This document shows positions 1,762 through 56,520 of a stretch of 64,000 nt of DNA, piece after piece. Every line of letters begins with the position of its first letter. The stretch's first letter is position 1. Made by a program: the position numbers and the translations under genes. The notes beneath the pieces were generated by a model, which did no database searches, was not told the origin of the DNA, and saw only the letters and a list, made by a program, of their open reading frames with translations. Source of the stretch: an uncultured Gammaproteobacteria bacterium (GTDB lineage Bacteria > Pseudomonadota > Gammaproteobacteria > JAADHQ01); contig CAMYJD010000018.1 in NCBI GenBank assembly GCA_947258655.1, forward strand, positions 3,294-67,293, written 5' to 3'.

Positions 1762-1821
1762 AGGTCAGAGTAAAAACTATCCATTATAATTTAACATAGA
1801 TAAAAGTTTTTACTCTGACCC
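1762..1821. repeat. MITE-like palindromic element, copy 1 (TIR GGGTCAGAGTAAAAACT)
   Basis: Terminal inverted repeats 'ggtcagagtaaaaactatcc ... agtttttactctgaccc' preceded by 'taatt'. Six related copies occur in the window. Confidence 0.7.
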
Positions 1822-2084
1822 GAATGGCACTTACTTAAGATGACAATCTCTTTCAGAGTAATAGATTGTCGTCATTGCGAGCCAATGGCAATACCTTACT
1901 ATGATAAATTCGTGGTCGCAGCGCGGCAATCTGCTTCAGCAGCCATTCCCTATCAGGCAATGCGATATCTCAATACGGAATTGGGGAGAAAATGTTAGGG
2001 GAGTAAACAGATTATGAAGGGGCTCAGCGACAAATCGCAATACGAATGATTATCAATTGTCACCGACCCCTTTTCCTACTTTTG

Positions 2085-3167
2085 CTATGGCAGGGCCGGA
2101 ATTGTCTGATCTGCGCCGGGGGCAGTTTGTCCAAAACCCCCGAGAACGCTAGATAACTGCCCGCTAGCGATATTTTCCCGACCACCGCTTACACTGCTCC
2201 AGGATCCGCTGGCGTGATTTGCAACACCACCGCTTACAGAACTATAGATACCACTGGCAACGTTGTCGATACCGCCGGTCACGCTGCTTCGATTACCACT
2301 GGCTACGTTAAACTGACCACCGACCACATTGCTAAAATTACCACTGGCAACGTTGTCGATACCGCCGGTCACGCTGCTGTGAAAGCCGCTTGCGATATTT
2401 TTTTCACCTCCAGTTACCGTGGCAGACGCACCATTTATTGCATTGAGTTTGCCGGCGACGACGCCGCCCCAGCGGGAGTAGCTGTTGCGGTCACCGATAA
2501 CGATATTGTGTGAGCCACTTTTATGGTCTATCGCCCAAACTTCACCTGCGGCTTGACAGGCTATTTGATCGGGATATTTACCGTCTGAGCAAACAGCAAG
2601 CGCTGGGCTAATGCGCGGTGTATTGTAGCCTACGATCATATTGCCCAGGCCATTCGTGACTGCGATCGAGCCTGTGCCATTTACCACCTGAAGGTTAACA
2701 CCATCAAACAGAGCGGTGGCATAGCCACTTGTATTGTCCAGATAAAGCAAGCCATCAAGATCAAGCACCGTGTTATTCTCAATCGCGGAAACACGCCCCT
2801 CTAATACCGTCACATCAAGGCCGGCAACAGTTTGTTCTAGCGCAGTCAGGTCGTTTTGCAAAGTGCTTATCAATCCGCCGTTTTGTGTGACATCAGTTTG
2901 CAGACTACCAAGGTCGTTTTGTAAGATAGTGATCGAACCCCCATTTTGCGCAATGCTGGCTTGCAGACTGGTGATAGTGCTGTTGGCGTTCGCTAAATCA
3001 GCCTGGAGAGAACTAATCGCATCCTGCGCTTCTGCCAATGCGCTCTCAAGCGCGGCAACACGTTTCGACACTGAACCAACTTTTTTAGGTTGTGCTGCCT
3101 GAGATATTGATACACCGGCAATAGTAATTAATAAAATACCAATACACGTTGTGATATAAGCTTTCAT
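2085..3167 (-). CDS. secreted coiled-coil protein with C-terminal Hep_Hag-like (YadA-head) repeats
   Basis: Signal peptide, LQxDL heptad coiled coil, then about 9 repeats of 'S.VTGG..N.ASG'. Internal 42-bp direct DNA repeat at about 2261/2341. Confidence 0.5.
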   Translation of the reverse strand: MKAYITTCIGILLITIAGVSISQAAQPKKVGSVSKRVAALESALAEAQDAISSLQADLANANSTITSLQASIAQNGGSITILQNDLGSLQTDVTQNGGLISTLQNDLTALEQTVAGLDVTVLEGRVSAIENNTVLDLDGLLYLDNTSGYATALFDGVNLQVVNGTGSIAVTNGLGNMIVGYNTPRISPALAVCSDGKYPDQIACQAAGEVWAIDHKSGSHNIVIGDRNSYSRWGGVVAGKLNAINGASATVTGGEKNIASGFHSSVTGGIDNVASGNFSNVVGGQFNVASGNRSSVTGGIDNVASGIYSSVSGGVANHASGSWSSVSGGRENIASGQLSSVLGGFGQTAPGADQTIPALP

Positions 3168-3265
3168 GACTACATCTCCTTGTCAGACGAGTAAAGGAAG
3201 AATAAATGCTTTATTTTTCCAAGTCCACTGCAAGTTTACTGTGAATGAGACAGCCTAGATTAATT

Positions 3266-3326
3266 GGGGTCAGAGTAATAACATTCCTTTCTCCTTAATG
3301 ATTTAGACCAGAGTTTGTACACTGAC
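3266..3326. repeat. MITE-like element, degenerate copy 2
   Basis: 'taattggggtcagagtaataac...gatttagaccagagtttgtacactgac'. Mutated arms of the same family. Confidence 0.55.
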
Positions 3327-3595
3327 TACAAAGGTTGCGTTATTCCTTGGTCATCGAGCATAAAATATTTACAAGCGCGAAAAGGCATCATAAAGAGATC
3401 AGACTCTTTTTATCGTAATGTTAAATTATTGTTAAGGATATTCTATCGATCTTCGTGTATACCCTATCTTGCGTATAATTCTCTTCTTAAGCATGCCTAT
3501 TTAACACCTATAAATTACAAACAACATTCAGCTTTGATTCAGGTTAATCATAGTAAACTGATTAACTTATCAACCACTACAGTAATGGTGAAATT

Positions 3596-4207
3596 ATGCA
3601 ATCAATTAAGTACGCTCTATACATATTCACTCTCGCCTTAATGACAAGCACGCCTACGGCATATGCAGACAAACCAGACAGGGAACTGAAACGTGAGCAT
3701 CGCCTTGATCGCGAAGAAGCGTACAAGGAACGCATGGAAGAAGAGCGCGTACGCCGCGAGGAGTGGGATGAAAGTCGCAGAGAAGAACAGGAGAAGCGCG
3801 AAGAGGCACGTAATGAGCGCATAGAAGAAGAGCGTGAACGTCGCAAGGAGTGGAAAGAAAGACACAAAGAAGAACACAAGGAACGTAAAGAGGCGCATAA
3901 GGAAAAAAAGAAAATAGAACGCGAGCAAATGAAACGTGAGCGTGAATTAGAAAAGGAAGAGCGTAAACAATATAGAGAAATGAAGCGCGAGGAGCGTAAA
4001 GATCGAGAAGAAATGAAGCGCGAAGACCGTAAGCATTATGAAGAAATGAAACGTGAGGATCATAAGCATCGTGACGAGATGAGGCATGAACATCACAAGC
4101 ATAATGAAGAGATGGAAAAAGAATACAGAGAATCAGGTAAAGGTTCGGAACAAGGGCAGCATCGGAGGGAAGATGTACGCAAGAAATGGTGGAAATTCTG
4201 GGAGTAA
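3596..4207 (+). CDS. secreted hyper-charged (K/R/E/H-rich) tandem-repeat protein
   Basis: Signal peptide 'MQSIKYALYIFTLALMTSTPTAYA' followed by degenerate 'EEMKRE[DE]RK' repeats. His-rich C-terminal part. Confidence 0.5.
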   Translation: MQSIKYALYIFTLALMTSTPTAYADKPDRELKREHRLDREEAYKERMEEERVRREEWDESRREEQEKREEARNERIEEERERRKEWKERHKEEHKERKEAHKEKKKIEREQMKRERELEKEERKQYREMKREERKDREEMKREDRKHYEEMKREDHKHRDEMRHEHHKHNEEMEKEYRESGKGSEQGQHRREDVRKKWWKFWE

Positions 4208-4904
4208 CTTACATGTACTAGCTCGGACTTAATCTGACAGTATTATATCTGCGTTTCTATAAAGTCTGACAATAGACAAGGACTCAAATTTAGTCAGGAT
4301 CGGACCTTACACTGAAATAGACTGAACATCCGAGAACGACCCAAATCGGCCTATTAGATAAATTTAATAAAGGTTTGATGTAAACCAGAAATGACAGTTT
4401 AGCAATTAGAAGTTTATACATCTTAATTCAGGATAAGTGTAATCATTTGTGTATTGCGCTATCAGTGGGCAAGCGGGTCTGCTTGACTGAGTTCTGTAAA
4501 TAACATACAACACCTGTTGTTGCACATACGTGCCGCAGCCCGGATACGTTATGCCGAATGGCTGCAACGGGGCGTATGGGGAGGTAAAGCACTCGATTTT
4601 CCATTGATATTGATGGAATTCAGACTAAATCCGGGACCATCTATCCGCTAGCCGACAGCGTGGCAGTCGATCACGGGCCGAACAATGAAGCGGTGGAGTT
4701 TTTCGGACCGTGCCCGGCCGAGGATGTGCGAGGTAACAACCGACCAGTCGACGCCTCGCAGTGTGACATCGGCGCATCCGAGATCTCGCGGTGAGCACCC
4801 GAAAAACCGGGGGTCAGCTATCAAGGATCTGACCGTCTGAGTGGGCTCGATTTGAGGTTCATGGTGGGTCGGACCAGGCCTGGTCCGACCCCGTATTGCC
4901 GTTG

Positions 4905-5828
4905 CTATTTCGAAGACAGGGTATCGAAGGGTTTGCTCCAGGTCGCTCCAATCCTGAACAGGTTTCCTGGCAAGACATTTCCAAAACGAATTCGAAAATC
5001 CAGCTCCGTACCAGGTAGCGACGACGGCGACTCACCCGGCTGCCACCAGAAACTATCGTCGGCCCCAGGATTCTCAAACTCTCCACCATCGATATTTTCC
5101 CATTGCCCTCCGGCAACCCGATAGTCATAGCCCCACCAGGGAAAGTCATAATTAAACTCGGCATCAGGATCAATAAAACAATGGACTACTTCAGCATAGA
5201 AGGCCCGTACATCGTATGCCGTCCCTGTTAACCTGAAATAGTTATTCTCGTCATCATACCAGTGTTGTGGTTTGCTTTGCGGGCCATCATTATCACTCAA
5301 AAAGGCCAGTCCGTAACCGAAACCTAGAATGTCATTGCTAAAACTGGCAAAATCCTGCTGCTCAATACAGAAATTACCTCCACCTTCGGATGGTGGATTG
5401 CCCAGGCCGAGCTCTGTGCGCGCCCATCCCTGCTGCCTAGTCCGATCCGGCTTACCATAAACCTTAAGCAGCGTGTCTGGAATTCGGGTTCCCACCGTGG
5501 TGACAGCCCACAGCAAGTCTACCGGGTTAGACCGTCTCAATATAGGCTGTTGTGAAATTCGTTGGGTGGCATGCTGGCTAGTTTCTCTAACGACAAAACC
5601 AAGTGTCACCCCACTCTTATCTTTGATCTCGAAAAGTCGCAAGACGCTGCCGTTATCAAACTCCAATTTGAGGCTGTTGTTCATTGTTAAAGCACCTGCT
5701 CCCCCGGGCTTTTCGATAAAATCATCGGTCAAGGTAGCAGAATGGACACTGGGTATAATCATCGCAACACCCAGAAACAGCGAGGTGAGGTACATTAATA
5801 GATAGTTATGAATAGATTCGTAGCGCAT
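4905..5828 (-). CDS. hypothetical secreted protein
   Basis: Internal ATG (MRYESIH...) with upstream AGGGAGAG RBS and signal peptide. The longer track ORF 4905..6044 has an implausible N-terminus. Confidence 0.5.
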   Translation of the reverse strand: MRYESIHNYLLMYLTSLFLGVAMIIPSVHSATLTDDFIEKPGGAGALTMNNSLKLEFDNGSVLRLFEIKDKSGVTLGFVVRETSQHATQRISQQPILRRSNPVDLLWAVTTVGTRIPDTLLKVYGKPDRTRQQGWARTELGLGNPPSEGGGNFCIEQQDFASFSNDILGFGYGLAFLSDNDGPQSKPQHWYDDENNYFRLTGTAYDVRAFYAEVVHCFIDPDAEFNYDFPWWGYDYRVAGGQWENIDGGEFENPGADDSFWWQPGESPSSLPGTELDFRIRFGNVLPGNLFRIGATWSKPFDTLSSK

Positions 5829-6283
5829 TGGACTCTCCCTTTCATATCTTGTTGGTCTATAGCTGCAACTGCAATGATTAAAAACTAAAGCAATGGTTCT
5901 GCCATGACAGTGAAAAATCTCACACACGGTGTGTGATAAATTTGCGTAGATGGGGATCTGAACTCGTAAAGATAATATATATCCACGAAATAACCACTTC
6001 CAATGATATCTTGCAGCAGGAGTGGATACGAGTCGTGCTGCCATGCGCCAAGCTCATCGGAACATGACAGGCGATTACCGTCTAACGCGGACAGTAAGAA
6101 AAGAAAGAAAAGGGGTCTGACCCCTTTTAATTTGAAAGACTGCTATAGGGTGTATCAGACCTTCATGTTCAGTCAATATTGCCAGGTCAAGTATAAATCT
6201 GTTCTGTAATATGTCAGATGAGGTTTGAACTACTACAACTTACATAATCTTTTCTTTAGTTTTTTGATAAAAATAACTAATTT

Positions 6284-6345
6284 GGGCTCAGAGTAAAAAC
6301 TATCCTTCATCCTTTGATTTAGACCAGAGTTTTTACTCTGACACC
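6284..6345. repeat. MITE-like element, copy 3
   Basis: 'gggctcagagtaaaaactatccttcatcctttgatttagaccagagtttttactctgacac'. Confidence 0.7.
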
Positions 6346-6357
6346 AAATATTACAAC

Positions 6358-6424
6358 TATTAATGGTTATATATCGATGGAGGGTTATCAGGCCAAGGGC
6401 TTTGAGTCTCTATCCCTCTTTTGA
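6358..6424 (+). pseudogene. 3'-terminal fragment of a DsrE-like paralogue (..INGYISMEGYQAKGFESLSLF*) abutting the MITE
   Basis: Near-identical to the 3' end of the 1238-1741 gene (GNGYISMVGYQAKGYESLPLF*). Followed by the same ~70-bp downstream block (6477-6548 vs 2010-2078). Confidence 0.45.
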
Positions 6425-6612
6425 GATTTACTACAGCAGTTATGATAAATCACAGAGAGAAAGTATTGAGGGCAGTAAACAGATTATTAAAGAAGGTCGG
6501 CGATAAATCGTAATACGAATGATTATCAATTGTCACCGACCCCTTTCTTGTTGCCTTTCTTGGAAGCCGACGTTCATAATTATTGAGAAAGGACACGAAT
6601 TCCTGATACTAA

Positions 6613-8442
6613 CTAAATTTCATTATCAGCCAGTAATTCTTTCACCGCTTTTTTGAATTCATCAACACGAATGGGTTTGGAGAAGTAACGACGGAATCCA
6701 GATCGTAGCCCCATTTCAACTTCCTGTGGCATGGCATTGGCACTCAAGGCTATCGTCGGCGTGTCACTGAGTTTTTCATGTTCTTGCAGTTTTTTTAATA
6801 CTTCAAAACCATCCATTCCCGGCAAGCAGACATCCAGAATTATTAGGTCCGGTTTATGAGCTGCCGCCATCTCCAGACCCAGTTGAGGCGTATGTGCTGT
6901 CAATAAATGAATCTTCGGCATATCTTCAACGAGGGCCTTGAGCAACTTAATGTGAGAAGGGTTATCTTCAATATATAACAGGGTATTACGCTGTTTCGTC
7001 TCAGTTCCAACTAAGGATGCAGACATGACAGGTTCTTTCTTTTCACATTCTGATGCGGTCTGTTGAGCCAGTTTCAGATCAACCCAGAATGTACTGCCCT
7101 TTCCGGGTTGCGATTCCACACCAATGGAACCGCCCATTAATTCGACCAGATGCTTGGAAAGGGACAAACCTATACCGGTGCCCTGGGTTGCATAGGTGTT
7201 GAGGTATAGCCGACTGAAAGGCTCGAATAACACTTTCTGATCTCCTTTTGCTATCCCGGCACCGGTATCAGTCACAGTGATCCGCCCGAACCCAGCATCC
7301 GTTTCCTGGCATGTCACGGCCACGCTGCCGCCTTCGCGGTTGTATTTAACCGCGTTGGAGAGGAGATTCAGCAATATCTGTTTTACGCGCAAGACATCGG
7401 CCTTCACGGTACAGCCCTCACAATTCACATTTTCCATATACTCAAGAGTGATATTCCGGTCCTGGGTCAATGGCAGCATGGTATTCACGCATTCCTGGAT
7501 GATTGCAGACGTGTTGATAGTGTCCATCGAAAGTTCCAGCTTATTTGCCTCAATGCTGGCTAGATCCAGTACATCATCGACCAGACTCAACAAGTGCCAT
7601 CCTGAACTCAGGATCGTCTGGGCATATTCACGGCGTTTAACTTGATTAAGACTGGCATCGTCGGCGTTTAGTAGCTGGGAAAAGCCAAGAATAGAATTAA
7701 GGGGTGTGCGCAGCTCGTGGCTCATGCGTGCCATGAATTGTGATTTGGCCAGGTTTGCAGATTCAGCCTCCGCTACAGCCATTTCCATCTGTTCTTCTCT
7801 CTCTTTAGCTTCAATATGTAACGCAATATTTTGCCTTGTTGTTTCATTAAAATTTCGTGCGCTATTGAGAAGAACAATCAGATATAACGTCAACATAACA
7901 CCCATAATAATGCCTATCTGCGTGCCTGTTATCGTTATGCGCACAATTATGGGTAACAGGAGCAAAATGAGAAAGCTGTAAACCGGTAGTCGTTGAAATG
8001 AAAGTGTTCCTATTGAACCTGCAGTCATACCGCCTAATACGAACACGATAAATACCTGGTGAACAATCGAGCTATCCGGGAATAAGAATATACTTACAGA
8101 TGCCCAGGCAATACCGGTTAAAATAACACCGATATTGAATTTATATGCCCAGTTTTTATACTCTTCAATATTGGGTGAAGCTTGTTTGAAGGCAAAGCCA
8201 TTCCAGCCTCGCCATAACATCAGTATTATGATAATTCCTAACCACATCGACAGGGCTTTAGCATCAACAGTATTCCACAACACAACTGCCAGTAAAACAG
8301 CATTAACTATCGTTGCAAAAACAATCAGAGGAATGCTTTTGTAAAGCAATCGTATTTGTTCGGCATGAATCAAGCCTGAACTTATGTTGATTACATCAGA
8401 ATCCCCGTCTTCTTGTTGCCCCTGTATATTTGAATTTACCAA
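6613..8442 (-). CDS. hybrid sensor histidine kinase/response regulator (multi-TM sensor, HisKA, HATPase, C-terminal receiver)
   Basis: H-box 'SHELRTPLNSILGFSQLL', G-boxes, C-terminal REC domain with 'DLIILDVCLPGMDG'. Confidence 0.8.
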   Translation of the reverse strand: MVNSNIQGQQEDGDSDVINISSGLIHAEQIRLLYKSIPLIVFATIVNAVLLAVVLWNTVDAKALSMWLGIIIILMLWRGWNGFAFKQASPNIEEYKNWAYKFNIGVILTGIAWASVSIFLFPDSSIVHQVFIVFVLGGMTAGSIGTLSFQRLPVYSFLILLLLPIIVRITITGTQIGIIMGVMLTLYLIVLLNSARNFNETTRQNIALHIEAKEREEQMEMAVAEAESANLAKSQFMARMSHELRTPLNSILGFSQLLNADDASLNQVKRREYAQTILSSGWHLLSLVDDVLDLASIEANKLELSMDTINTSAIIQECVNTMLPLTQDRNITLEYMENVNCEGCTVKADVLRVKQILLNLLSNAVKYNREGGSVAVTCQETDAGFGRITVTDTGAGIAKGDQKVLFEPFSRLYLNTYATQGTGIGLSLSKHLVELMGGSIGVESQPGKGSTFWVDLKLAQQTASECEKKEPVMSASLVGTETKQRNTLLYIEDNPSHIKLLKALVEDMPKIHLLTAHTPQLGLEMAAAHKPDLIILDVCLPGMDGFEVLKKLQEHEKLSDTPTIALSANAMPQEVEMGLRSGFRRYFSKPIRVDEFKKAVKELLADNEI

Positions 8443-8536
8443 CGTATAAATCCTGGTTTTTATGATATTTAGATTAAGTCTATACTAGTAGGCAGGAAAA
8501 CTCTTTATATTATAGATAGGATAATTACCTGGTGTT

Positions 8537-8641
8537 ATGAATATAGGTGATATATTAGCAAATTGTATATTATTACACTCACCCAACAAAATGATCCTGT
8601 ATGAATATCTCTACTTCAGGTCGGCTCCAGAGTTATATTAG
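8537..8641 (+). CDS. candidate small peptide ORF (34 aa, MNIGDILANCILLHSPNKMILYEYLYFRSAPELY), possible RiPP precursor
   Basis: GGTG 6 nt upstream of the ATG. Stops 10 nt before the radical-SAM frame-A ATG. Aromatic-rich C-terminus. Speculative. Confidence 0.2.
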   Translation: MNIGDILANCILLHSPNKMILYEYLYFRSAPELY

Positions 8642-8797
8642 AAATCCCTAAATGACCCCTTTCGGTCAACTCCGGCCTGACAGCCCCATTGCTGCGGGCA
8701 GAAAAGGGGTCAGACTGAACCTCCCCCACTGTGCCAGTTAAAATGCCCTGGATGCAAGCAGAGTAAGGCAAATTATAAAAAACAATTTCGAAATAGC

Positions 8798-9589
8798 ATG
8801 CAAATAACAGTTGATGAATTTAAGAATATTGTTGATCCACTTAGTGACACCCTTCTTGGGATTAGTTTAAGCAATCATGGAGAACCTTTGCTCCACAAAA
8901 ATATTTCCACGCTAATCGAATACGCTCACCAGAAAAATATTGCTGTTAGCTTCCCAACTAATTTGTCGCTAAAGCTAGACAAAGCATCAATAGAGAAACT
9001 TGTTAAATCTGGATTGGACTCCATTGTGGTTTCTTTAGATGGAGCGTCGGAAGAAACATATAGTAAATATAGAGTTGGGGGTGACTTCAAATTAATCCTA
9101 GACAACGTTAAAACAATTTCACGGGAAAAACGACTTCTTGGGCTAAACCGACCTAAACTTATATGGAAATTCGTAGTGTTTGATCATAACAAACATGAAC
9201 TAGATATGGTTGTAAAAAGACACCGTGAGTTAGGTTTTGATACATATAGCTTTGTACAAGATTACCGGTCTAACATTGCCAAAAAGGCAGGACACAAATA
9301 TAAAAAACGTTTTCGGAGAAAGCATCAAGGCTGCTTTTGGTTATGGCATGCGATGATTATCAGCTGGAATGGCGAGGTATTTCCTTGTTGTAAAAGCCAA
9401 TCCTTTGATCTTGGAAATGCCATTAATGATAACAGCGTTGATATTTGGCGATCAGAGGGCTATCGGACTCTGAGGCAGGGATTTTCGAGTGCAGAAGATT
9501 TAACTATGATGAATCCAATATGCAGAAGGTGTATGGGTTATGAATCAGCACCTTCCGTTGATACAAAAAGCCTTACAAAGGCAGTCTAG
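8798..9589 (+). CDS. radical SAM / SPASM(twitch)-domain protein, N-terminus disrupted (see findings)
   Basis: 'GEPLLH' SAM-binding motif and C-terminal Cys cluster 'CCKSQ...ICRRCMGY'. The CX3CX2C motif (CQLKCPGC) is encoded in-frame upstream of the first start codon. An alternative ATG at 8652 lies in another frame. Confidence 0.6.
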   Translation: MQITVDEFKNIVDPLSDTLLGISLSNHGEPLLHKNISTLIEYAHQKNIAVSFPTNLSLKLDKASIEKLVKSGLDSIVVSLDGASEETYSKYRVGGDFKLILDNVKTISREKRLLGLNRPKLIWKFVVFDHNKHELDMVVKRHRELGFDTYSFVQDYRSNIAKKAGHKYKKRFRRKHQGCFWLWHAMIISWNGEVFPCCKSQSFDLGNAINDNSVDIWRSEGYRTLRQGFSSAEDLTMMNPICRRCMGYESAPSVDTKSLTKAV

Positions 9590-9973: not shown

Positions 9974-10049
9974 TGGTGGCCAGGGACAGAATTGAACTGT
10001 CGACACGAGGATTTTCAGTCCACTGCTCTACCGACTGAGCTACCTGGCC
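9974..10049 (-). tRNA. tRNA-Phe (GAA)
   Basis: Reverse complement gives GGCCAGGTAGCTCAGTCGGTAGAGCAGTGGACTGAAAATCC...GTTCAATTCTGTCCCTGGCCACCA. Cloverleaf with GAA anticodon and encoded CCA. Confidence 0.9.
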
Positions 10050-10054
10050 TTAAT

Positions 10055-10110
10055 ATAGGGACGAGTTGCTAGTGGCGAGTAACTGGGAAAAGCCTGGCGC
10101 CAGTAGCAAG
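10055..10110. repeat. REP-like element of the 'GCTAGTGGCGAG' family
   Basis: 'gttgctagtggcgagtaactgg...gcgccagtagcaagg' imperfect inverted repeat. Related copies at 13181, 39791 and 43741. Confidence 0.5.
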
Positions 10111-11392: not shown

Positions 11393-11790
11393 GACGATTC
11401 AGCAGATTGCTTCACTCCCGTTCGCAATGACAAATTATATTTATGTCATCGCGAGGACAAAGGGCCATTCATTTAAAACATATATAAACGGCCGCCGCTT
11501 TTTGGGCGACGCGGCGATCTGTTCATGCAGGTATCCAGATATAAAACAAGCTGGATAAGGGATTTGAGCGATTGCTTCACTCCCGTTCGCAATGACAAAT
11601 TATTTTTGTGTCATCGCGAGGACAAAGGGCCATTCATTTAAAACATATATAAACGGCCGCCGCTTTTTGGGCGACGCGGCGATCTGTTCTTACAGGTATC
11701 CAGATATAAAATAAGCTGGATAAGGGTTTTGAGAGATTGCTTCACTCCCGTTCGCAATGACAGGTGGGTATGTTTATGTAGTCATAATCC
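11393..11790. repeat. 165-bp tandem repeat, 2.3 copies (~95% identity)
   Basis: Unit 'gattgcttcactcccgttcgcaatgaca...ctggataaggg' starts at 11405, 11570 and 11735. Each unit has a GC hairpin 'cgccgcttttt..gcggcg'. Confidence 0.75.
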
Positions 11791-13180: not shown

Positions 13181-13297
13181 GGTCGGTAGCTAGTAGCGAG
13201 TGGCGAGTAGCTAGTAAATAACGGTGTTTTGATAATGTTTTCCTCGCTACTCGCCACTAGTAACTCGCTACTGATGTTCTCACGCGCGCGTGAGAAC
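13181..13297. repeat. REP-like 'TAGCTAGTAGCGAGTGGCGAG' inverted repeats plus 28-bp perfect palindrome gatgttctcacgcgcgcgtgagaacatc
   Basis: Seen directly in the sequence between the asmA stop and the mutY start. Confidence 0.6.
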
Positions 13298-39792: not shown

Positions 39793-39875
39793 CCTTGAGT
39801 AGCTAGTGGCGAGTTGCTAGTAGCTAGAAAATCTCATACATCACAACACATTTTTCCTCGCTACTAGCTACTGCC
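39791..39875. repeat. REP-like element of the 'GCTAGTGGCGAG' family
   Basis: 'gagtagctagtggcgagttgctagtagctag ... cctcgctactagctactg' inverted repeats. Confidence 0.55.
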
Positions 39876-43721: not shown

Positions 43722-43740
43722 TTGACAGTGTCTAGTTGCC

Positions 43741-43830
43741 GGTCACCAGTAGCCAGGAATTACCACAATACTACTCTTCTCCACCCTCGCCACTAGCAAC
43801 TCGATCCTCGCTACTGGACGAAAATATCAT
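43741..43830. repeat. REP-like element of the 'GCTAGTGGCGAG' family
   Basis: 'ccctcgccactagcaactcgatcctcgctactgg'. Confidence 0.45.
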
Positions 43831-43901: not shown

Positions 43902-44237
43902 GGGCCTGTAGCTCAGTTGGTTAGAGCAGTGGACTCATCAAAAAGGTGCGTTCATACCGAAAGGTATGAAATGAACGGGATGAATTCAGGGAAACCTTAA
44001 CAGCCACAATTCTGTGGGCTGATGGCAATCCTGAGCCAAGCCGGAAGTACACTTCCGGAAGGTGCAGAGACTACCTGGGGACTGGTGTAAACCGAGCGTC
44101 CTTAATCACAGGCAAGAGCGTCCCGCGTCCTAACAAGCTTAATCGCGTTGAGGATGATGAGATAGTCCGCTCCTGATAGAAATATCCGGAACAAGTGAAT
44201 CCATTGGTCGAAGGTTCAAGTCCTTCCGGGCCCACCA
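43902..44237 (+). tRNA. tRNA(CAU), most similar to tRNA-Ile2 (lysidine), interrupted by a 259-nt group I intron at 43939-44197
   Basis: The exons 43902-43938 and 44198-44237 assemble to GGGCCTGTAGCTCAGTTGGTTAGAGCAGTGGACTCAT|AATCCATTGGTCGAAGGTTCAAGTCCTTCCGGGCCCACCA. The intron lies after a U, ends in G, and has a GTG IGS. Confidence 0.85.
43939..44197 (+). ncRNA. group I (Azoarcus/IC3-like) self-splicing intron within the tRNA(CAU) anticodon loop
   Basis: P2 'ttcatacc-GAAA-ggtatgaa'. 'GGGATGAATTCAGGGAAACCTTAA' and 'GGTGCAGAGACTAC' match Azoarcus pre-tRNA-Ile intron core elements. Confidence 0.8.
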
Positions 44238-44475: not shown

Positions 44476-44499
44476 TAGTTTTTACTCTGACCCCAATTA
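44476..44499. repeat. solo half-site of the MITE-like element
   Basis: 'atagtttttactctgaccccaattact' is the right arm only. Confidence 0.55.
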
Positions 44500-44506: not shown

Positions 44507-45133
44507 TTAGCCGATACTCAACAGCATAAAGAGCCCACCTGACAGGATTGCCAGCGAACTTCCCAGCCGGGTCATGGTCGCCTGCAATGCGAAAGCACGG
44601 ATAACTGCGCCGATGATCAAATATTGAATAACAGAGAAGCCGATCAGGTAGGCCAGTAACGGGCCGGTTTCAGCGCCGACGATGGCTTCACCATAGGCAT
44701 AACCGTGGAATACACCGGATACGGCAAATACAGCACCGAGAAATACCGCGCCCAGGCTTTTTCTGGTCACAGCGATGATACCCGCGCCCAGCACTGACAA
44801 CGCGACCAGCGTTTCGGCAAACGGAATATTGCCATCAGCCAGATGAAAGACCGTGCCTCCAAGCGTGGCGGCGACGAACAACAGCGGCACGACATAGCGC
44901 GCCACCCCACTCAGGGTAAAGGCCAGTACTGCCGCTATCAGCAAGAATATAAAATGATCGAGGCCGATGACCGGATGCGCAATCCCGGAGATAAAGCCCT
45001 GGGCAAAGGTCACCGGCGTCTGCCCATCCATTGCATGATGCGCATTGGCCTCTGTTGCCATGAATAACATCATGGCTGCACCCATGCCCATATGACGGAG
45101 ATTAGAAGTATTTATATTAGTTAATGTGCTCAT
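44507..45133 (-). CDS. HupE/UreJ family Ni/Co transporter
   Basis: Signal peptide plus 'HPVIGLDHF' signature. Confidence 0.75.
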   Translation of the reverse strand: MSTLTNINTSNLRHMGMGAAMMLFMATEANAHHAMDGQTPVTFAQGFISGIAHPVIGLDHFIFLLIAAVLAFTLSGVARYVVPLLFVAATLGGTVFHLADGNIPFAETLVALSVLGAGIIAVTRKSLGAVFLGAVFAVSGVFHGYAYGEAIVGAETGPLLAYLIGFSVIQYLIIGAVIRAFALQATMTRLGSSLAILSGGLFMLLSIG

Positions 45134-48045: not shown

Positions 48046-48053
48046 AACTTCTC

Positions 48054-48977: not shown

Positions 48978-48984
48978 ATGTCGT

Positions 48985-49815
48985 CTATTCCACGTACTGG
49001 ACCATTTTGGTTGCCTTGGCCAGCAGTAAGTCCAGTACCATACCGACGATACCGATCATCAGGATGGAGAAAATAACTGCTGTCAGATCGAGATTGTTCC
49101 ACTCATTCCAGACGTAATAACCAATACCTGTTCCTCCAACCAGCATTTCTGCCGCAACGATAACAAGCCAGGCAATACCGATAGATATACGCATACCAGT
49201 CAGAATAGTGGGGGCTGCGGCCGGAAGGATCACCATGACCGCCGTGCGTAACTTGCTCAGCTCATGTGTACGCGCAATATTGATCCAGTCTTTCTTGACC
49301 GAACCGACACCAAACGCGGTGTTGATCAACATCGGCCAGATTGAACAGATAAAGATTACAAATACCGAGGATACTTCGGAGTCCTTCAAGATGAACAAGG
49401 CCAACGGCATCCATGCAAGCGGAGATATGGGTTTCAACACCTGGATAAATGGATCCAGCGCCTTATGCATCAACGGCGACATACCGATCATAAAACCGAT
49501 CGGTATGGCAATCAAGGCAGCAAGGAAGTAACCCGACATGACCCGCTTGATAGAATACAGCAGCTGCAGGCCGATGCCCTTGTCATTGGGGCCCTTGTCA
49601 TAGAACGGATCGCTCAATTCCGCTAGCGCGAGCGTGCCGATCTCGGAAGGATTGGGAACCCGGGCATGCGGCGCCGAACCTCCCATCAGCATTTCATACT
49701 CGGTCTTGGCTTCCTTGACTTCCGGTGGCTGATTGGCGATTTCCCAGACACCCAGGGTTACGATCAATATAACCACCGACAACAGTGCCGCCCGCACATT
49801 CAAACTACTTAACAT
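48985..49815 (-). CDS. ABC transporter permease, NrtB/CynB type
   Basis: 6-TM binding-protein-dependent permease with EAA-like loop. Confidence 0.85.
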
Positions 49816-49819
49816 CCTC

Positions 49820-51352
49820 CTATGTCCTCTTGATGGCGAAGCTCTCTATGTATTCCTCCGGCTTGGTATAGTCGAAGGTCTTACCCATGATGGTGTAGTT
49901 CTCGTAGGTCTTGGCTGGCGGTTCATAGCCAAGGTCCGTCATGAGCTTGCCACAATCGGCGGCCAGATAGACCTGCTCCGAGATCTTCTTGTAATCAACA
50001 TCGCCTTTGATATAACCCCAGCGTTTCATTTGCGTCAGTATCCACACGGCCATCGAATGCCAGGGGAATGGATCGAAATCGATACGATCCGGTTCATTAC
50101 GGACATTACCCAGACCATCGGCAAAACGCCCCGTCAGCACCTGCTCGACTACGGGCACGGGCTGATTCAGATAGTTTTTGGGTGAGATGGCCTTGGCGAT
50201 ATCCTTGCGGTTCTCTGCCCGAGATGAGAAATGTGTTGCATCCACAATGGATCTGAACAGCGCACCATAGGAATTCGGGTTCTCGCGAGCGAATTCCGCA
50301 CTCGTGGCAAAGGCGCAGCAGGGATGACCTTGCCAGATCTCCTTCGTCAGCAAGTGAATAAACCCGACCTTCTCCCATACCGCACGTTGATTGAACGGAT
50401 CCGGCGACAGGTAGCCATCGAGGTTTTCCGCACGCAGATTAGCAACCATTTCCGGTGGCGGTACAACGCGGATCTGGATGTCCTTATCCGGATCGAGACC
50501 ATGCTCGGCTACGTAGTAACGCAACAGGAAGTTATGCATCGAGTACTCAAACGGCACGCCAAATTTGAAGCCTTTCCATTTTTTCGGATCACGCTTGTCC
50601 TTGTGCTTGTTATGCAGAACAATGGCCTGGCCATTGATGTTCTCCACCGCCGGCATTATGAAAGGCATGGCCGTGGAACCGGCACCCATGGTCATGGCCA
50701 GCGGCATTGGGGTCAGCATATGGGCCGCGTCGTATTCCTTGTTAATGGATTTATCACGGGAAACCGCCCAACCGGCCGTCTTGATGACGTCCACATCGAG
50801 ACCATATTTGTCGTAGAAGCCCATCGGGTGCGCCATAATAATAGGTGTCGCACAGGTAATGGGTACAAAACCCACTTTAAGCTTCTTCTTCTCAAGCGGC
50901 CCAATCTTGTCCTTGAACGCGGCCTTGGCTGCCTCCATCGGGAATATGCTCGCCAGGATAGACGCTGCCGTACCACCACCTAGCATTTTCATGAAGTTAC
51001 GTCGCGAGGCTTCGTTATGACCGAACACTGCGCGTACCACAGCACTTTCAATGGCGCGATCGATAATGGTCTCGGGGGTTTCGGTAGGATTATCGGGAGA
51101 ACCGTCTGCCCTGAATGCATTCGGATCAGCAGGCGCTGCATCAGCACTGGCATCTGCATCAACATACTGGGAGTCAGTCGCTGTACCTTCATATACAGCC
51201 CGCTCCAGGCGCTCCGTCATTTCTGACTCTGTACACTCATAACGCGACTCGGCTTCTTCACGTTTGAATACACAAATAGGACAGTTACATGCAGGACCAT
51301 GCTGCAAATCACTTTCCGGATTAAATGGATCACCAAGACTCTTATTCGACAT
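49820..51352 (-). CDS. NrtA/CmpA/CynA-like periplasmic substrate-binding protein with a Tat-type 'SRRNFMKMLGG' signal. The ORF carries a ~105-aa Cys-rich upstream extension.
   Basis: Strong NrtA-family similarity after the RR motif. The extension contains 'GPACNCPIC...YEC'. The true start may be a GTG near residue 105. Confidence 0.7.
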   Translation of the reverse strand: MSNKSLGDPFNPESDLQHGPACNCPICVFKREEAESRYECTESEMTERLERAVYEGTATDSQYVDADASADAAPADPNAFRADGSPDNPTETPETIIDRAIESAVVRAVFGHNEASRRNFMKMLGGGTAASILASIFPMEAAKAAFKDKIGPLEKKKLKVGFVPITCATPIIMAHPMGFYDKYGLDVDVIKTAGWAVSRDKSINKEYDAAHMLTPMPLAMTMGAGSTAMPFIMPAVENINGQAIVLHNKHKDKRDPKKWKGFKFGVPFEYSMHNFLLRYYVAEHGLDPDKDIQIRVVPPPEMVANLRAENLDGYLSPDPFNQRAVWEKVGFIHLLTKEIWQGHPCCAFATSAEFARENPNSYGALFRSIVDATHFSSRAENRKDIAKAISPKNYLNQPVPVVEQVLTGRFADGLGNVRNEPDRIDFDPFPWHSMAVWILTQMKRWGYIKGDVDYKKISEQVYLAADCGKLMTDLGYEPPAKTYENYTIMGKTFDYTKPEEYIESFAIKRT

Positions 51353-51566
51353 ACTTTTGTCCCCTCTCCGATTACATTAAAAGCTCGTTACCGCTGCATA
51401 GCGTGCATACATTGCTACGAATTCAATCGTTCACGTTTATGCGCTATTGCAGTGCACTGCGAATACTTTTTGCATTACATGAAGGCGCGCTCACTATATA
51501 CACCTGATCTTTTTACCCCTGATTCAGGCGCCTGGCACACCTCCATTGTTTGCATAAATTTAATTT

Positions 51567-51582
51567 TGCAATATGCATACCA
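51567..51582 (-). promoter_or_regulatory. candidate sigma-54 (-24/-12) promoter for the cyn operon: TGGTAT-N5-TTGCA
   Basis: GG-N10-GC spacing is satisfied on the minus strand. It lies 80-130 bp downstream of three palindromic sites and about 200 bp upstream of the SBP gene. Confidence 0.3.
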
Positions 51583-51651
51583 ATAACGAATTAATGTCAT
51601 AGCTGCCTGAATATTTAATCTTTTTTCTTATTTTCATGATTGCAATAGCGG

Positions 51652-51706
51652 TTACGAATTTTCGTAATTTACGAAATATCGTATTTATAATTACGATATT
51701 TCGTAA
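51652..51706. promoter_or_regulatory. three 16-bp palindromes TTACGAwwTwTCGTAA (candidate enhancer/operator sites)
   Basis: 'ttacgaattttcgtaa', 'ttacgaaatatcgta' and 'ttacgatatttcgtaa' lie in the divergent intergenic region. Confidence 0.5.
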
Positions 51707-51773
51707 GAAGGAATGGATCTTGTATGAGTTATCTGCAGACACATCGACCAGGTAATATTTTCAGGGGAAGATT

Positions 51774-53708
51774 ATGCATTCCAGTTCAAATGCAATCAGA
51801 TCCACGAATCCGGATCAATACAGGCAAGTGTTTGAAAATTCCAGCGATGCCATTCTGTTAATCGATCCTTTTCTGGATAGGGTTGTAAATGCCAATGCAG
51901 CCGCATGCAATATGCTGGGGTATGAAAAGGATGAAATCACCGCACTGTGTGCAAGCGCATTGCATGCCCATGAAATCCCGGCGCTGATCGTGTTTTCCCA
52001 GTCCGTGCTGGACAAGGGCAACGACTGGACAGACGAACTCAGCTGCCGGAAAAAACATGGTGAGCTGCAGCCAGTAGATTACTCGGCATCGACATTCGAA
52101 TCTGACGGTAGGAAACTGATCATCGCAACATTACGCGACCGGGAACGACTGCAAAACCTGAAAAAGGAGTCCAATGCAAATATATATGTACGCCAGGGTA
52201 TATCAGACTGGAAGCACATTGAAAATATTTTTCAACAGATAGAACATGAAAACAAGCTCATCCTGAAAGCCGCCGGTGAAGGTATATACGGTGTTAATGC
52301 CGATGGCAATACGACCTTCGTCAATCCTGCTGCCGAGCGCATGCTGGGCTGGACCGCAGAGGAAATGGTCAGCCATAATATTCATGACATGATCCACTAT
52401 AACAAGGCGGATGGTTCACATTACGATGTGCATGATTGCCCTATTCTCGCAGCCTTCAAGGACGGCGAGGTCCACACGGTGGACAATGAAGTATTCTGGC
52501 GCAAGGATGGCACTCCGATTCCGGTTGAATATACGAGTACACCGATCAAGGATCATGGTAACCTTGTCGGTGCCGTAGTCATCTTCCGTGACATCAGCGA
52601 ACGCAAGGAAGCCGAACGCAATCTCCATGCGGCACTCACTAAGGTCGAAGAACTCAGGCACAAACTGGAAATGGAAAATGCCTACCTGCAGGAAGAGATC
52701 CGCTCGGAACATAATCATCATGAAATAGTCGGCAAAAGCGTTGCCATACAACAAGTTATAAAACAGATCGAACTGGTTGCGCCAACAGATGCAAATGTCC
52801 TGATTAGCGGAGAATCAGGCACGGGCAAAGAGCTCATTGCACGCGCCATCCATCAAAGTAGCACACGTAACGAACGCCCGCTAATCAGGGTCAATTGCGC
52901 TGTTATTCCACACAACCTGTTTGAAAGCGAATTCTTTGGCCATGCAAAAGGCTCCTTTACAGGCGCTGTCAGCGATCGCGCCGGCCGTTTTGAACTGGCG
53001 GACGGCGGTACGCTCTTTCTTGACGAGGTAGGTGAAATTCCGCTGGAGCTACAAAGCAAATTATTACGTGTATTACAGGAAGGGCAATTCGAGCGCATAG
53101 GTGAAAATAAAACGCGTAACGTCAACGTGCGCATTATTGCGGCGACCAATCGCGATCTACGTCAGGAGATCAGCAAGCAGAAATTTCGTGAAGACCTATT
53201 CTTCCGCCTGAATGTATTCCCGATAGAATCAGCACCATTACGCAGACGTGCAGATGACATACCGCTGCTCGCAATACATTTTTTGAAACGTGCCTGCCAT
53301 AAACTCAATAAACCCGATGTGCGTCTCACACAGGGTAATATCGAGAGCCTTGTTGCCTACAAATGGCCGGGTAACATCCGTGAAATGGAAAACGTAATCG
53401 AACGCGCCGTCATTGTCTCGCAAGGCGGCCGCCTCAAACTCGATCTGCCAGACAATGACCCTGATCTCCTGGAATCAACTCCCGAACCATCATACAAGCG
53501 AGATCAGCCGGGGTCAGGAGGTATACTGTCACACCATGAAATTCGTTGCCGCGAACAAGACAATATTATCCATGCATTAAAAGAGAGCGGTGGCAAGATA
53601 TTCGGTGCCGGTGGTGCCGCCGAACTCCTCGACATAAAACCAACTACACTGGCATCAAAAATAAAGCGCCTGGGTATTGATAAATCACAGTATAGAGCAC
53701 CGTCATAA
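51774..53708 (+). CDS. sigma-54-dependent transcriptional activator with two N-terminal PAS domains (no receiver domain) and C-terminal Fis-type HTH
   Basis: AAA+ '[15 protein letters not shown]', 'GSFTGA' sigma-54 contact motif, '[19 protein letters not shown]' HTH. Confidence 0.85.
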
Positions 53709-53813
53709 TGCCAGGCTACGCATGTTCGCCATACACATCTGCCTGCGCCGACTGTTCGCAATCAAATTGCTGCCTGCGATACTTTACAATTATTCCGGAC
53801 TGTGGGGTTCAGA

Positions 53814-54293
53814 TCAAAGACCAAGGTCCGACAAACCGGGATGATCGTCCGGTCGCCGTCCACAAGACCAGTGATACAGACGTTCGCTCTCCGTAATCGT
53901 CAAATCGTTAATACTTGCTATACGGCGCTGCATCAATCCATTCTCGGCAAATTCCCAGTTCTCGTTCCCGTATGAACGGAACCACTGCCCGGAATCATCA
54001 TGCCATTCGTAGGCGAAGCGTACCGAGATACGGTTTTCATGAAAGGCCCATAACTCCTTGATCAGCCTGTAATCATGCTCCCGATTCCACTTGCGCATTA
54101 AAAACTCAACAATCGCATCACGACCCGTGAAAAATTCGGCACGGTTACGCCATACACTATCCGGGGTGTATGCCAGCGAGACACGCTCCGGCTCCCGCGT
54201 ATTCCAGGCATCTTCCGCCATCCTCACTTTCTGTATTGCCGCACTCATATCAAATGGAGGCAATGGCGGCCTTGCTGATTCAACATTACTCAT
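53814..54293 (-). CDS. DUF1348 (NTF2-like) family protein
   Basis: 'WNTREPERV...[23 protein letters not shown]' is typical of COG3558/DUF1348. Confidence 0.6.
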
Positions 54294-54553
54294 TTGATCC
54301 TTCCTTCATTCTGATATAAACCTGTAACGCAGTTTCGCACCATGAAGGCATCCACACAATACCTTATACGCGCATTTATTATATACAGGCACGACAACAG
54401 ACGGGTTTTAGTAAATGATTGATACTCTCGTGATCATTCGATATTTTTTAATCCTGTCGGAAACAAACATCGGAGCAGATGGAATTAACAAAGCAAACAA
54501 ATCAGACTTGTATTTTATAAGAAAACTCTTGTGTCCGGCGACTTTCGCTTTAC

Positions 54554-55213
54554 CTACGAGGATGTACGGCCCGGTAATAGCGGCTTAAAGAATGCAGCTC
54601 CAAACCTGATTGCGTCATGAAGGTTGAAGATTGAAATACTGTCCGCATCACTTCCCTGCCATCGACGCGCAATTTCACTGTCTTTTAGAAATACCATTTC
54701 CATGCACATGCTATGAGCGGCCACCCCCGCTGGCATTTGCCAACGAATACCGACGCAAACATCCTTCGGCTTCACGTCCGCAAGCTCAAATCCACGCATA
54801 TGGATTTCAACCGCTTCGGCCGTCACATGACAACGTGACATAATAGAAACCTCGGTATCGAATAGCGTTGCTACCGAGAGCGCATCCAGTGCACACATGG
54901 CATAGATGGTATTTGCTCCGACCCTCAGCTTATGCGCTGTCTGTTCGACAGTCACCGGATAGGCGCCGACAACAGCTGTACCCTCGGCATTCAGCACGAC
55001 CAGGTCATTTTCACCCAGAATGAGCAATGCCTCGACCACGCCATCAGCGCCGACGCGTTCTGCAATTTCAGTATTCGACAGTGGTTCACCACGCATGATC
55101 AATGACTCAAGGATAGCCTGATGCAGGTGTTTTAATAGCGGCGGTAACTGCTCCTGTCTTGCCTTCAGTGGCAGCAGGGAATTCAATCGATCGACGGCAG
55201 CTTGAATATGCAT
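54554..55213 (-). CDS. MerB-like organomercurial (alkylmercury) lyase family protein
   Basis: 'YAMCALDAL' (Cys/Asp catalytic pair) and a later Cys-containing segment resemble MerB. N-terminal HTH-like region. Confidence 0.45.
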   Translation of the reverse strand: MHIQAAVDRLNSLLPLKARQEQLPPLLKHLHQAILESLIMRGEPLSNTEIAERVGADGVVEALLILGENDLVVLNAEGTAVVGAYPVTVEQTAHKLRVGANTIYAMCALDALSVATLFDTEVSIMSRCHVTAEAVEIHMRGFELADVKPKDVCVGIRWQMPAGVAAHSMCMEMVFLKDSEIARRWQGSDADSISIFNLHDAIRFGAAFFKPLLPGRTSS

Positions 55214-55346
55214 CGCAATTTACCTCTCAACGGTTCAACAACAGTTCAATTTGGCCTGAAATCAAAATAACATGTCTTTATACAACACAAATAAAACCTT
55301 CATTAAAGAAGCCATTCTGCTATCTACAATGCCGGAGGAATTAATT

Positions 55347-55408
55347 GGGGCCAGAGTAAAAACTATCCTTTATCCTTTGATATAGACCAGGGTTTTTACT
55401 CTGGCCCC
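55347..55408. repeat. MITE-like element, copy 5
   Basis: 'ggggccagagtaaaaactatcctttatcctttgatatagaccagggtttttactctggcccc' flanked by taatt/aatta. Confidence 0.7.
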
Positions 55409-55431
55409 AATTACTAAGCAGTGTATATATT

Positions 55432-56319
55432 TCAGATATCGTCACTATGTTTTAGATGTTTTGCCAAGGAAACAACCGTATCTTTCGATGTCTCTTTTTG
55501 TATATAACTAATATCTTTTAACTTCGCATGATCTTCTAGTATTTCCTTATGGATGTCGCTTGATAAATTAGTAATAAAAATACTACTTTTACCTTCAATC
55601 GTTTTCTTGTTTATGTATAGATCATCCATAAGAACGATTGCATCGTCATTACCATTTATAATCTCCGTAAGTTCATTAAGGGTCTTTGAATCAAGATAAT
55701 TTTTACCACCCTTGATTAAACCAGCTATTGTCTTTTTCAGATACCCTAACAGCTGCGCCCCGTTATATTTTAATTTTCTCCATTGTGTATATGAGCCGTA
55801 GATCGGCTCCATTAATAAATAATTATCAAAGCATAGATCCTGTATAACATGTTCATATACCTCAAATTCAGCAACATAATAATCCTCGCTATCACGCGCT
55901 TCATCTCTATTATTCAGAGATAGGCAAGCCTCTATAACTGGATTTTCTGATTTTATTTTTTTGATTTCTTCACTAACAGCCGTTTGTATTCTAACAGTAC
56001 TACCTTCAGTACTATATATATCATGAAAGGAACCCGAGATTATATTTTGAGCAATCAACCTTAACTCAGGTCTAATATGAGCATCGCTAAACTCCATCAT
56101 GACCAGATCATTTAGAGCATATAAAATATCCAATCGATTTTGAAAATCTGGCATACCATTTAAGACGGAGTCATCTGCCGATTGATACGTATCATAGACC
56201 GCCTGGTATAGCTCATATAACTTATGATTATCTTGTGATGACTCAGGATAATGTTCGAATGTATAAAGATAATATTTAACCAATGTATCTACATTAGACA
56301 CATCATCGATCCCAAGCAA
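55432..56319 (-). CDS. hypothetical protein on an AT-rich islet flanked by inverted MITE copies
   Basis: 295-aa ORF, markedly AT-rich versus surroundings, no recognisable motif. AT-rich promoter region 56320-56458. Confidence 0.5.
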   Translation of the reverse strand: MLGIDDVSNVDTLVKYYLYTFEHYPESSQDNHKLYELYQAVYDTYQSADDSVLNGMPDFQNRLDILYALNDLVMMEFSDAHIRPELRLIAQNIISGSFHDIYSTEGSTVRIQTAVSEEIKKIKSENPVIEACLSLNNRDEARDSEDYYVAEFEVYEHVIQDLCFDNYLLMEPIYGSYTQWRKLKYNGAQLLGYLKKTIAGLIKGGKNYLDSKTLNELTEIINGNDDAIVLMDDLYINKKTIEGKSSIFITNLSSDIHKEILEDHAKLKDISYIQKETSKDTVVSLAKHLKHSDDI

Positions 56320-56458
56320 CTCTCCAATATAGGATTCAATTGTTATATTTTTGAACTTTAGCGATCTGCATAATAAAGCATACGCAACTTTTTAAATTCA
56401 ATTCCTGAATTACCCATATATTGATATTCCTTTATTTATTGTTTTATTGTAACTAATT

Positions 56459-56520
56459 AGGGTCAGAGTAAAAACTCTGGTCTAAATCAATGGGTAAACG
56501 ATAGTTTTTACTCTGACCCT
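56459..56520. repeat. MITE-like element, copy 6 (inverted orientation)
   Basis: 'agggtcagagtaaaaactctggtctaaatcaa...gatagtttttactctgaccct'. Confidence 0.7.

Follow-up and report, generated by a model that had tools for sequence, protein, structure and literature searches.

The stretch of DNA analysed here (the window) covers 64,000 nt of the 68.9-kb contig CAMYJD010000018.1 (positions 3,294 to 67,293, assembly GCA_947258655.1) from an uncultured gammaproteobacterium of the lineage JAADHQ01. Its core contains rpsU, dnaG and rpoD and, next to them, a tRNA(CAU) gene into which a group I intron is inserted. The window also carries a dispersed family of palindromic repeats, each formed by two inverted arms around a short core. 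The initial annotation had described five full copies and one solo arm, and an arm search confirms them: with the 23-mer TAATTGGGGTCAGAGTAAAAACT and up to three mismatches, 10 matches are observed against 0.00 expected from 100 shuffles, and a looser 14-mer search adds an eleventh, degenerate arm at 3313-3326, the right arm of the copy at 3261-3332. The repeats are confirmed as a genuine family of five ~72-bp palindromic elements and one solo arm (Table 1), all intergenic; the elements are real, but the positions first given for them lie 5-6 nt inside the true ends. Their description as a non-coding, non-autonomous repeat family is likewise supported.

Table 1 Coordinates of the repeat elements and associated features in the window.
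Feature	Position	Strand	Remarks
Copy 1, full element	1756-1827	+	Arms 1756-1778 and 1805-1827; DNA fold -14.7 kcal/mol, z -5.4
Copy 2, degenerate element	3261-3332	+	Left arm with 2 mismatches, right arm (GTCAGTGTACAAAC type) with more
Copy 3, full element	6279-6350	+	Fold -15.4 kcal/mol, z -6.0; reference copy in the within-window comparison
Partial diverged duplicate of 1679-2073	6362-6546	+	84-89% identity; context of copy 3, not part of the element
tRNA gene, anticodon CAU (Ile2 or Met type), with group I intron	43903-44237 (intron 43927-44189)	+	Rfam RF00028, 84 bits
Solo arm	44477-44499	-	0 mismatches to the consensus
Copy 4, best-preserved element	55342-55413	+	Arms 22/22 complementary; fold -24.0 kcal/mol, z -7.1
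Copy 5, full element	56454-56525	-	Core inverted relative to the other copies; fold z -7.2 / -8.0

The window copies differ in their state of preservation. Copy 1 begins 15 nt past the stop codon of a DsrE-like gene (1238-1741), in a convergent intergenic gap, and its arms contain uncompensated mismatches (GAGG versus CGGG). Copy 2 occupies the divergent gap between the genes 2085-3167(-) and 3596-4207(+); with 2-4 mismatches per arm, it folds no better than its shuffles (z -0.27) and is therefore a decayed relic. Copy 4 shows a compensated T>C / A>G change in its arms (GGGGCC/GGCCCC) and ends 19 nt from the stop codon of an orphan gene at 55432-56319(-). Copy 5, located between the start of this orphan gene and the stop of 56556-57329(-), shows a compensated G>A / C>T change at the foot of both arms (AGGG/CCCT). 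The solo arm sits between the intron-containing tRNA gene and the stop of a HupE/UreJ gene, 44507-45133(-). As single-strand DNA, four of the copies fold with -14.7 to -24 kcal/mol, at z -5.4 to -8.0 relative to shuffles. The core of ~26 nt had been described as variable, but it is 72-88% identical between the window copies, and that of copy 5 is 87% reverse-complementary to those of copies 3 and 4. The conserved core makes the element oriented, with copy 5 flipped relative to the others. The reported occurrence of copies in both orientations is borne out.

The family extends well beyond the window. In species-representative genomes, a scan for CAGAGTAAAAAC and GTTTTTACTCTG separated by 20-40 nt, with 12+12 exact bases required, recovers at least 118 stretches, nearly all from gammaproteobacterial metagenome-assembled genomes (MAGs); the arm is not confined to the genome of the window. 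The counts are lower bounds, and both conservation and copy number are conditional on exact arm cores. The carriers include Halieaceae, Woeseiaceae, ‘Lysobacterales’, Cycloclasticus, Thiotrichales, Chromatiales, Granulosicoccaceae, Oleiphilaceae, Porticoccaceae, and sponge and bivalve symbionts, with Seongchinamella unica GH4-78 as a cultured carrier isolate. Across carrier loci spanning 38-70% GC, the 17-mer GGGGTCAGAGTAAAAAC is near-invariant; it is taken as the conserved arm because the five bases GGGGT, which lie outside the scan pattern, are near-invariant as well. Extra copies in carrier loci occur at ~60-75 per Mb. The loops are mostly unique, even within one genome, and some subfamilies share a loop over many copies and several genomes; same-loop copies at unrelated sites are found in the window, in Arabian11_MAG_61 and in a sponge-symbiont subfamily. 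In eight loci from sponge- and coral-associated MAGs (L005, L006, L013, L045, L048, L093, L096 and L098), an additional inverted repeat, CAGCGGTTCCCGC...GCGGGAACCGCTG, encloses the element. This composite subfamily is multi-copy across several MAGs, and its inner loop is flipped in some copies.

Outside these chromosomes, only chance-level matches appear in 2.9 million viral contigs, 72,556 plasmids, phage records and 5,426 E. coli genomes. A Klebsiella plasmid match (22/24 nt) is a single arm-like stretch without a partner and is treated as chance. At the Rfam gathering threshold, only the group I intron and tRNA-Phe are recognised in the window, and a permissive Rfam scan returns only chance microRNA hairpin matches, far below threshold. 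In the searchable literature, the arm string yields only unrelated primers in either orientation.

Each unit is ~70-85 nt long and consists of two inverted arms around the conserved 17-mer, which form a stem of ~28 bp closed by a loop of 20-40 nt. The outer foot of ~7 nt is A/T-rich, with seven or eight variable positions that typically read GATATTT, and ~4 inner positions also extend the stem. The family alignment gives the arm consensus (A/T)TTTGGGGTCAGAGTAAAAAC, and a folded hairpin of the family can be written GATATTTGGGGTCAGAGTAAAAAC-loop-GTTTTTACTCTGACCCCAAATATC. Conservation is 89-100% at arm positions -1 to +15; on either side of these, -8 to -2 and +16 to +19 are variable yet paired, by several pair types. 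In a gapless alignment of 98 distinct copies, 87.6% of the cells of the 28-pair helix are paired, versus 80.3% when the partners are shuffled (0/500 shuffles reach the observed value), and sliding the partners by 1-3 columns reduces pairing to 33-51%. Double changes, on both sides, occur in 18 of the 28 pairs. This shows that the two arms evolve in concert. In the collected loci, 161 doublets stand against 44 solo arms, many of the latter within arrays of partial copies, which places 88% of arms in doublets. Clusters, tandem partial copies and nested copies also occur there.

The genomic position of the element follows from a simple longest-ORF (open reading frame) gene model of the collected loci, a crude model applied mostly to MAGs. 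The gaps of 128 classifiable copies are convergent in 43 cases, tandem in 64 and divergent in 21, versus a baseline of 85, 218 and 98, respectively, for all gaps in the same loci. The median distance is 22.5 nt to stop codons overall, 14 nt to each stop in convergent gaps and 101 nt to start codons. These values show that the element is enriched between convergent genes, directly behind stop codons. Copies occupy almost all gaps in four loci (L028, L071, L013 and L018). The neighbours are ordinary, unrelated genes: clustering of the 2,842 ORFs of the loci gives only housekeeping families and no recurrent neighbouring gene.

At the insertion sites, no duplication accompanies the element. The window copies show no consistent target-site duplication, and among 146 copies direct 5-nt repeats at the flanks occur in 0-1 at any of 12 boundary offsets; the sole 4-nt direct-repeat signal is the self-complementary ATAT. 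The TA/TAATT duplications anticipated in the initial annotation are not borne out, with none of 5 nt or more in this set, and the flanks are instead inverted, with matches at 4-8 times expectation that extend the hairpin.

Comparison of related genomes, which had also been suggested, reveals both retention and turnover. The element is kept between dnaX and ybaB in three species of related MAGs. In two of five orthologous pairs, the loop of one member reads as the reverse complement of the other's, and one pair carries a compensated change in the outer stem. Gain or loss is seen in a single gap of three genomes, which holds an element in L061, tandem repeats in L040 (91% identical), and an 8-nt spacer without an element in L086. 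The L040 repeat (7395-7650) is a ~51-bp tandem unit, GTCATACCGGCGAATGCCCGTCAAACCGCATGCCCGTCATGCCGATGCCCGTCCC, that fills the gap where L061 has the hairpin. A sister hairpin family, here family B, is present in L061 (2421-2526), L006 (~820) and L010 (~253); its arms are AATGGGGTCAGGTCGCACAATGCACA, and only the foot ATGGGGTCAG is common with the element. Family B provides one clean filled-versus-empty site, in the loop of a 5-bp hairpin overlapping the ybaB stop codon, where the insertion replaces that stop codon and has TTTT on both sides.

Truncated arm copies accompany 33 of the 146 hairpins. All of these begin at the unit's outer end and break off within the arm or the loop; among partial arms adjoining full arms, 21 are outer-anchored and 0 inner-anchored. 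No homology suggesting simple slippage is found at the junctions. Nested insertion was considered as a source of the partial arms and is rejected, because it would leave inner halves and no inner-anchored leftovers are seen. A symmetric ‘tip replacement’ fails as a general rule, since 25 of the 33 cases are one-sided. The outer-anchored partial copies may reflect end-initiated copying or strand transfer.

A search for a mobilising enzyme bears out the reported lack of a transposase in the window. No Y1/HUH ORF, whether REP-associated tyrosine transposase (RAYT; REP, repetitive extragenic palindrome), IS200 TnpA or HUH-Y motif, is found in the window or in 883 kb around ~160 elements, and a 13-bit match is a 50-residue low-complexity stretch. 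The RAYT query was validated by database RayT proteins 95-99% identical to it, and the 120 matches listed are all from Enterobacteriaceae. No insertion sequence (IS) with matching ends, the parent proposed initially, occurs in the window, the 118 loci, viral contigs, plasmids or phages. An integrase or recombinase is likewise absent from the window, and none recurs in the loci.

Two relatives, L119 and L120, with RpoD identities of 90-92%, have the core synteny and the tRNA intron in common with the window, and no arm is found in their 21.8 kb each of core region near rpoD, even with 4 mismatches. Their synteny with the window breaks right after the tRNA gene, at the place of the solo arm, which is absent from both. 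ARAGORN misses this intron-containing tRNA gene. The five full copies are confined to two low-GC segments of 39-47% GC, versus 49-56% elsewhere in the window, where their neighbours are orphan or secreted-protein genes. The proposed association with AT-rich accessory genes and with one rearrangement junction is accordingly supported. Within the window, the loop is shared between copies and the arms are mismatched. The window copies were most likely imported with low-GC accessory DNA or are relics of a past burst that are no longer maintained, and they are probably inert marks of horizontally acquired or rearranged low-GC segments.

The reading we favour, with a probability of about one half, is that the element works like a REPIN (a REP doublet forming a hairpin), that is, as a non-autonomous single-strand hairpin element moved in trans. 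On this view, the six window sequences are aged and partly eroded members of a family with many carriers. The form recognised would be the folded single-strand DNA hairpin. A chromosomal enzyme may copy or move it in trans, acting at the hairpin foot; this enzyme is predicted to be HUH/Y1 (RAYT or IS200-type), or a functionally similar nuclease-ligase, and to start from the outer end. An arm that is invariant across orders and from 38 to 70% GC, with neither a REP head nor a target duplication, points to a conserved trans-acting partner. From the position behind stop codons, the transcribed hairpin may in addition act as a barrier or modulator at mRNA 3′ ends, as E. coli REPs do.

Several observations weigh against the REPIN-like reading. 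Covariation is not by itself proof of selection on the hairpin, because template switching in inverted repeats (quasipalindrome mutagenesis) can make compensated changes, and the covariation may thus be mutational. The scan asked for 12+12 exact bases and so accounts for some of the arm conservation seen between orthologues. Most carrier genomes have copy-specific loops, which very old copies or formation in situ fit as well as recent transposition does. The failure to find a mobilising enzyme in the window or 883 kb of loci is weak evidence either way, as one RAYT per genome would rarely be sampled in that length. Further, the arm lacks the GT[AG]G head of a REP (neither GTAG nor GTGG occurs in the main family), an arm taken singly contains no palindrome and, its GGGG foot apart, is rich in A and T, and the same 17-mer spans many orders, unlike REPs, which are normally genus-specific and co-evolve with their RAYT.

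The next reading in order of probability, itself doubtful, is a host-maintained hairpin that does not move and serves in protein binding and/or at RNA 3′ ends: a bidirectional terminator, mRNA stabiliser or modulator of translation termination, kept by selection through a conserved binding partner, with new copies arising by local duplication, gene conversion or template switching. The proximity to stop codons and the enrichment in convergent gaps fit such a role. By way of analogy only, REPs of E. coli that lie no more than 15 nt from a stop codon are known to affect translation and mRNA decay. Persistence in one and the same gap of species that share only 80% identity, the invariant arm in genomes of 38-70% GC and the absence from phages and plasmids point in the same direction. 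In a minority of copies in other genomes (L047, L032, L021 and L099), the loop is a GC hairpin with AAAAAC before and GTTTTT after it, arranged like an intrinsic terminator that works in both directions. The window copies, however, fail the intrinsic-terminator pattern of a GC-rich stem, small loop and T-tract: the size of their loops is excessive, and the stem lacks a T-tract behind it, with AAATAT or AATTA next to the right arm. They are also decaying and confined to accessory DNA, and close relatives have no copies near rpoD. Identical whole units, loop included, at unrelated loci and gain and loss between related genomes are not expected of a host-maintained hairpin, and for such a site no host factor is known that binds the duplex in a sequence-specific way.

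A further reading is broader and unlikely. The family and its sister families sharing only the foot (A/T)ATGGGGTCAG would together form an undescribed class of single-strand hairpin mobile elements in marine and sediment Gammaproteobacteria, moved by an enzyme that is shared horizontally and begins its action at the outer foot. If true, such a class would be mechanistically distinct from RAYT/REP systems and from MITEs (miniature inverted-repeat transposable elements) of the DDE type, and it would account for why partial copies are strictly outer-anchored, why insertion takes place in loops of other hairpins, why the target is not duplicated and why different orders have an identical arm.

The initial annotation had preferred a MITE. 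In the classical form, this would be a remnant of a DDE-type IS that has lost internal sequence, and a transposase supplied in trans would bind its terminal inverted repeats of 17-24 bp as double-stranded DNA. Arms of 17-24 nt, an interior of variable sequence and length, multi-copy subfamilies with common interiors, presence/absence polymorphism and a window without a transposase all agree with this, and the TTTT at the single clean insertion of family B is a possible 4-bp duplication. The usual MITE mechanism is nevertheless quite improbable here: no duplication of 5 nt or more is present at any offset in the 146 copies, and no full-length element with these ends is found in the 883 kb of loci, plasmids, phages or viral contigs. 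The outermost bases vary around an invariant arm interior, the reverse of most transposon ends, and compensated changes between the arms would be unexpected if each end were bound separately.

A DNA uptake signal, comparable to the Neisseria DNA uptake sequence (DUS) or the Pasteurellaceae uptake signal sequence (USS) and spread by biased uptake and recombination, is highly improbable. A long motif conserved across related taxa regardless of GC, present on chromosomes and absent from phages and plasmids, with most copies carrying a unique loop and pairs lying at gene ends, would suit such a signal. Uptake signals, however, work and mostly occur as single copies, and here 88% of arms are in doublets, none of the copies lies in coding DNA, and the density is ~10x below that of DUS or USS; same-loop whole units in multiple copies and polar partial copies are not accounted for either. 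Least probable, and largely refuted, is a cassette system in which the bracketed AT-rich orphan genes would be mobile cassettes and the element their attC-like or dif-like site for site-specific recombination, for which the flanking of single orphan genes by hairpin-forming sites (1756/3261 around 2085-3167, 55342/56454 around 55432-56319) had spoken: no integrase or recombinase is found in the window or recurs in the loci, the outer ends (A/T)TTTGGGG...CCCCAAA(A/T) lack the attC core sites RYYYAAC / GTTRRRY, the sites lie in mixed orientation, and in carriers the hairpin follows housekeeping genes such as dnaX, ybaB and TonB receptor genes. The element pairs thus do flank these two window genes, as first described, but not in a cassette-like manner; hairpins in many successive gaps of carrier loci explain the bracketing without cassettes.

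The surroundings of the window copies include further repeats. To the right of copy 3, the partial duplicate, which covers the 3′ end of the DsrE-like gene and sequence downstream of it, starts 11 nt from the element: 6362-6434 is 84% identical to 1679-1751, the 3′ end of the DsrE-like gene, and 6490-6546 is 89% identical to 2017-2073. The truncated paralogue 3′ end that had been noted beside this copy is therefore real. The two parts of the duplication (1679-2073 and 6362-6546) flank a ~4.3-kb low-GC segment of orphan genes, a layout resembling the repeat left by island integration, with no integrase present. A homologue search with the DsrE-like protein returned itself alone. The Hep_Hag label given to gene 2085-3167(-) is not upheld, as Pfam gives only sub-threshold beta-roll and coiled-coil matches; the gene encodes a coiled-coil orphan with a beta-roll-like part of 45-bp periodicity (sub-threshold LbR_Ice_bind). 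Gene 3596-4207(+) encodes a secreted orphan protein rich in Lys, Glu and Arg, with 87-bp and 33-bp tandem DNA repeats. At 6108-6128 lies a small perfect bidirectional terminator-like hairpin, AAAAGGGGTCTGACCCCTTTT, whose stem starts with the GGGGTC foot of the repeat family.

A second, unrelated palindromic family is present at 10056-10091, 13183-13274, 39798-39830 and 43730-43815. It is built of heptamer-like units CGAGTNG / CTAGTNG (e.g. TAGCTAGTAGCGAGTGGCGAGTAGCTAGTAA), with 36-nt arms 20 nt apart at 13183-13274. It adjoins tRNA-Phe, lies upstream of dnaG and in the gap between rpoD and the tRNA gene, and is visible also in the relative L120. These heptamer-like repeats and the group I intron in a tRNA gene had raised the possibility of a cyanobacterial origin, which is rejected because the scan matches and the RpoD relatives belong to the Gammaproteobacteria. 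At 11405-11762, a 165-bp tandem unit is repeated ~2.2 times with 96% identity, each containing a minus-strand terminator-like hairpin.

In bacteria, small palindromic repeats influence the DNA between genes, the ends of transcripts and the rearrangement of genomes; to our knowledge, the REP/RAYT systems and the MITEs derived from ISs are so far the only ones that are understood. With a cultured carrier, S. unica GH4-78 (NZ_SMSE01), and several closed genomes, among them OZ242169.1, OZ252091.1, OZ244928.1 and OZ220696.1, the present family is a tractable system.

Among known systems, the element differs from MITEs and IS200/IS605 elements in distinct ways. Like the MITEs Correia of Neisseria, ERIC, RUP and Nezha, it is short, non-coding, intergenic and multi-copy, has terminal inverted repeats, forms subfamilies with common interiors and shows presence/absence polymorphism. 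Unlike in MITEs, there is no TA or other target-site duplication and no parent IS in the searched data, and the outermost bases vary, the inner arm is invariant and the arms co-vary. With the ends of IS200/IS605 elements and with palindrome-associated transposable elements (PATEs; ‘peel and paste’), the element would have in common the recognition of a folded single-strand hairpin, duplication-free insertion and an expected link to the replication fork; the family B insertion in the single-stranded loop of a small hairpin is a further likeness. IS200/IS605 elements, however, possess two different subterminal hairpins and a fixed target tetranucleotide, whereas the present element is one large symmetric hairpin with no consistent target motif. 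DUS and USS are also short family-conserved motifs, often found as inverted pairs in 3′ intergenic regions, but they are mostly single, occur in coding DNA as well, are ~10x denser and have no whole-unit multi-copy subfamilies.

The closest resemblance is to REPINs and their RAYTs, as in Pseudomonas fluorescens SBW25 and in the bacterial interspersed mosaic elements (BIMEs) of E. coli. In a REPIN, two inverted REPs form a hairpin, and doublets predominate over singlets (PMC3116915). Both kinds of element combine two inverted conserved arms and a less conserved spacer in a long hairpin; both are extragenic, reach copy numbers of about 100 or more in a genome and form clusters and tandems. In both, doublets persist and singlets are remnants, and no target is duplicated; both are chromosomal, differ from an ordinary IS and are retained for long at orthologous sites. 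The outer-anchored polar partial copies set the present element apart. In REPIN systems the cognate RAYT gene is single-copy and has the repeats on both sides; no RAYT was found in the window or 883 kb of loci. A REP starts 5′ with a GT[AG]G head, and behind it comes an imperfect palindrome rich in GC (PMC2817692, PMC6006769). The REP-like palindrome, named as the alternative in the initial annotation, comes nearer to the evidence than the MITE, but these canonical features, the head and an arm that is itself a GC-rich palindrome, are absent. In conclusion, the element matches REPINs in organisation, lacks two defining REP features and is not filed as a member of REP/RAYT.

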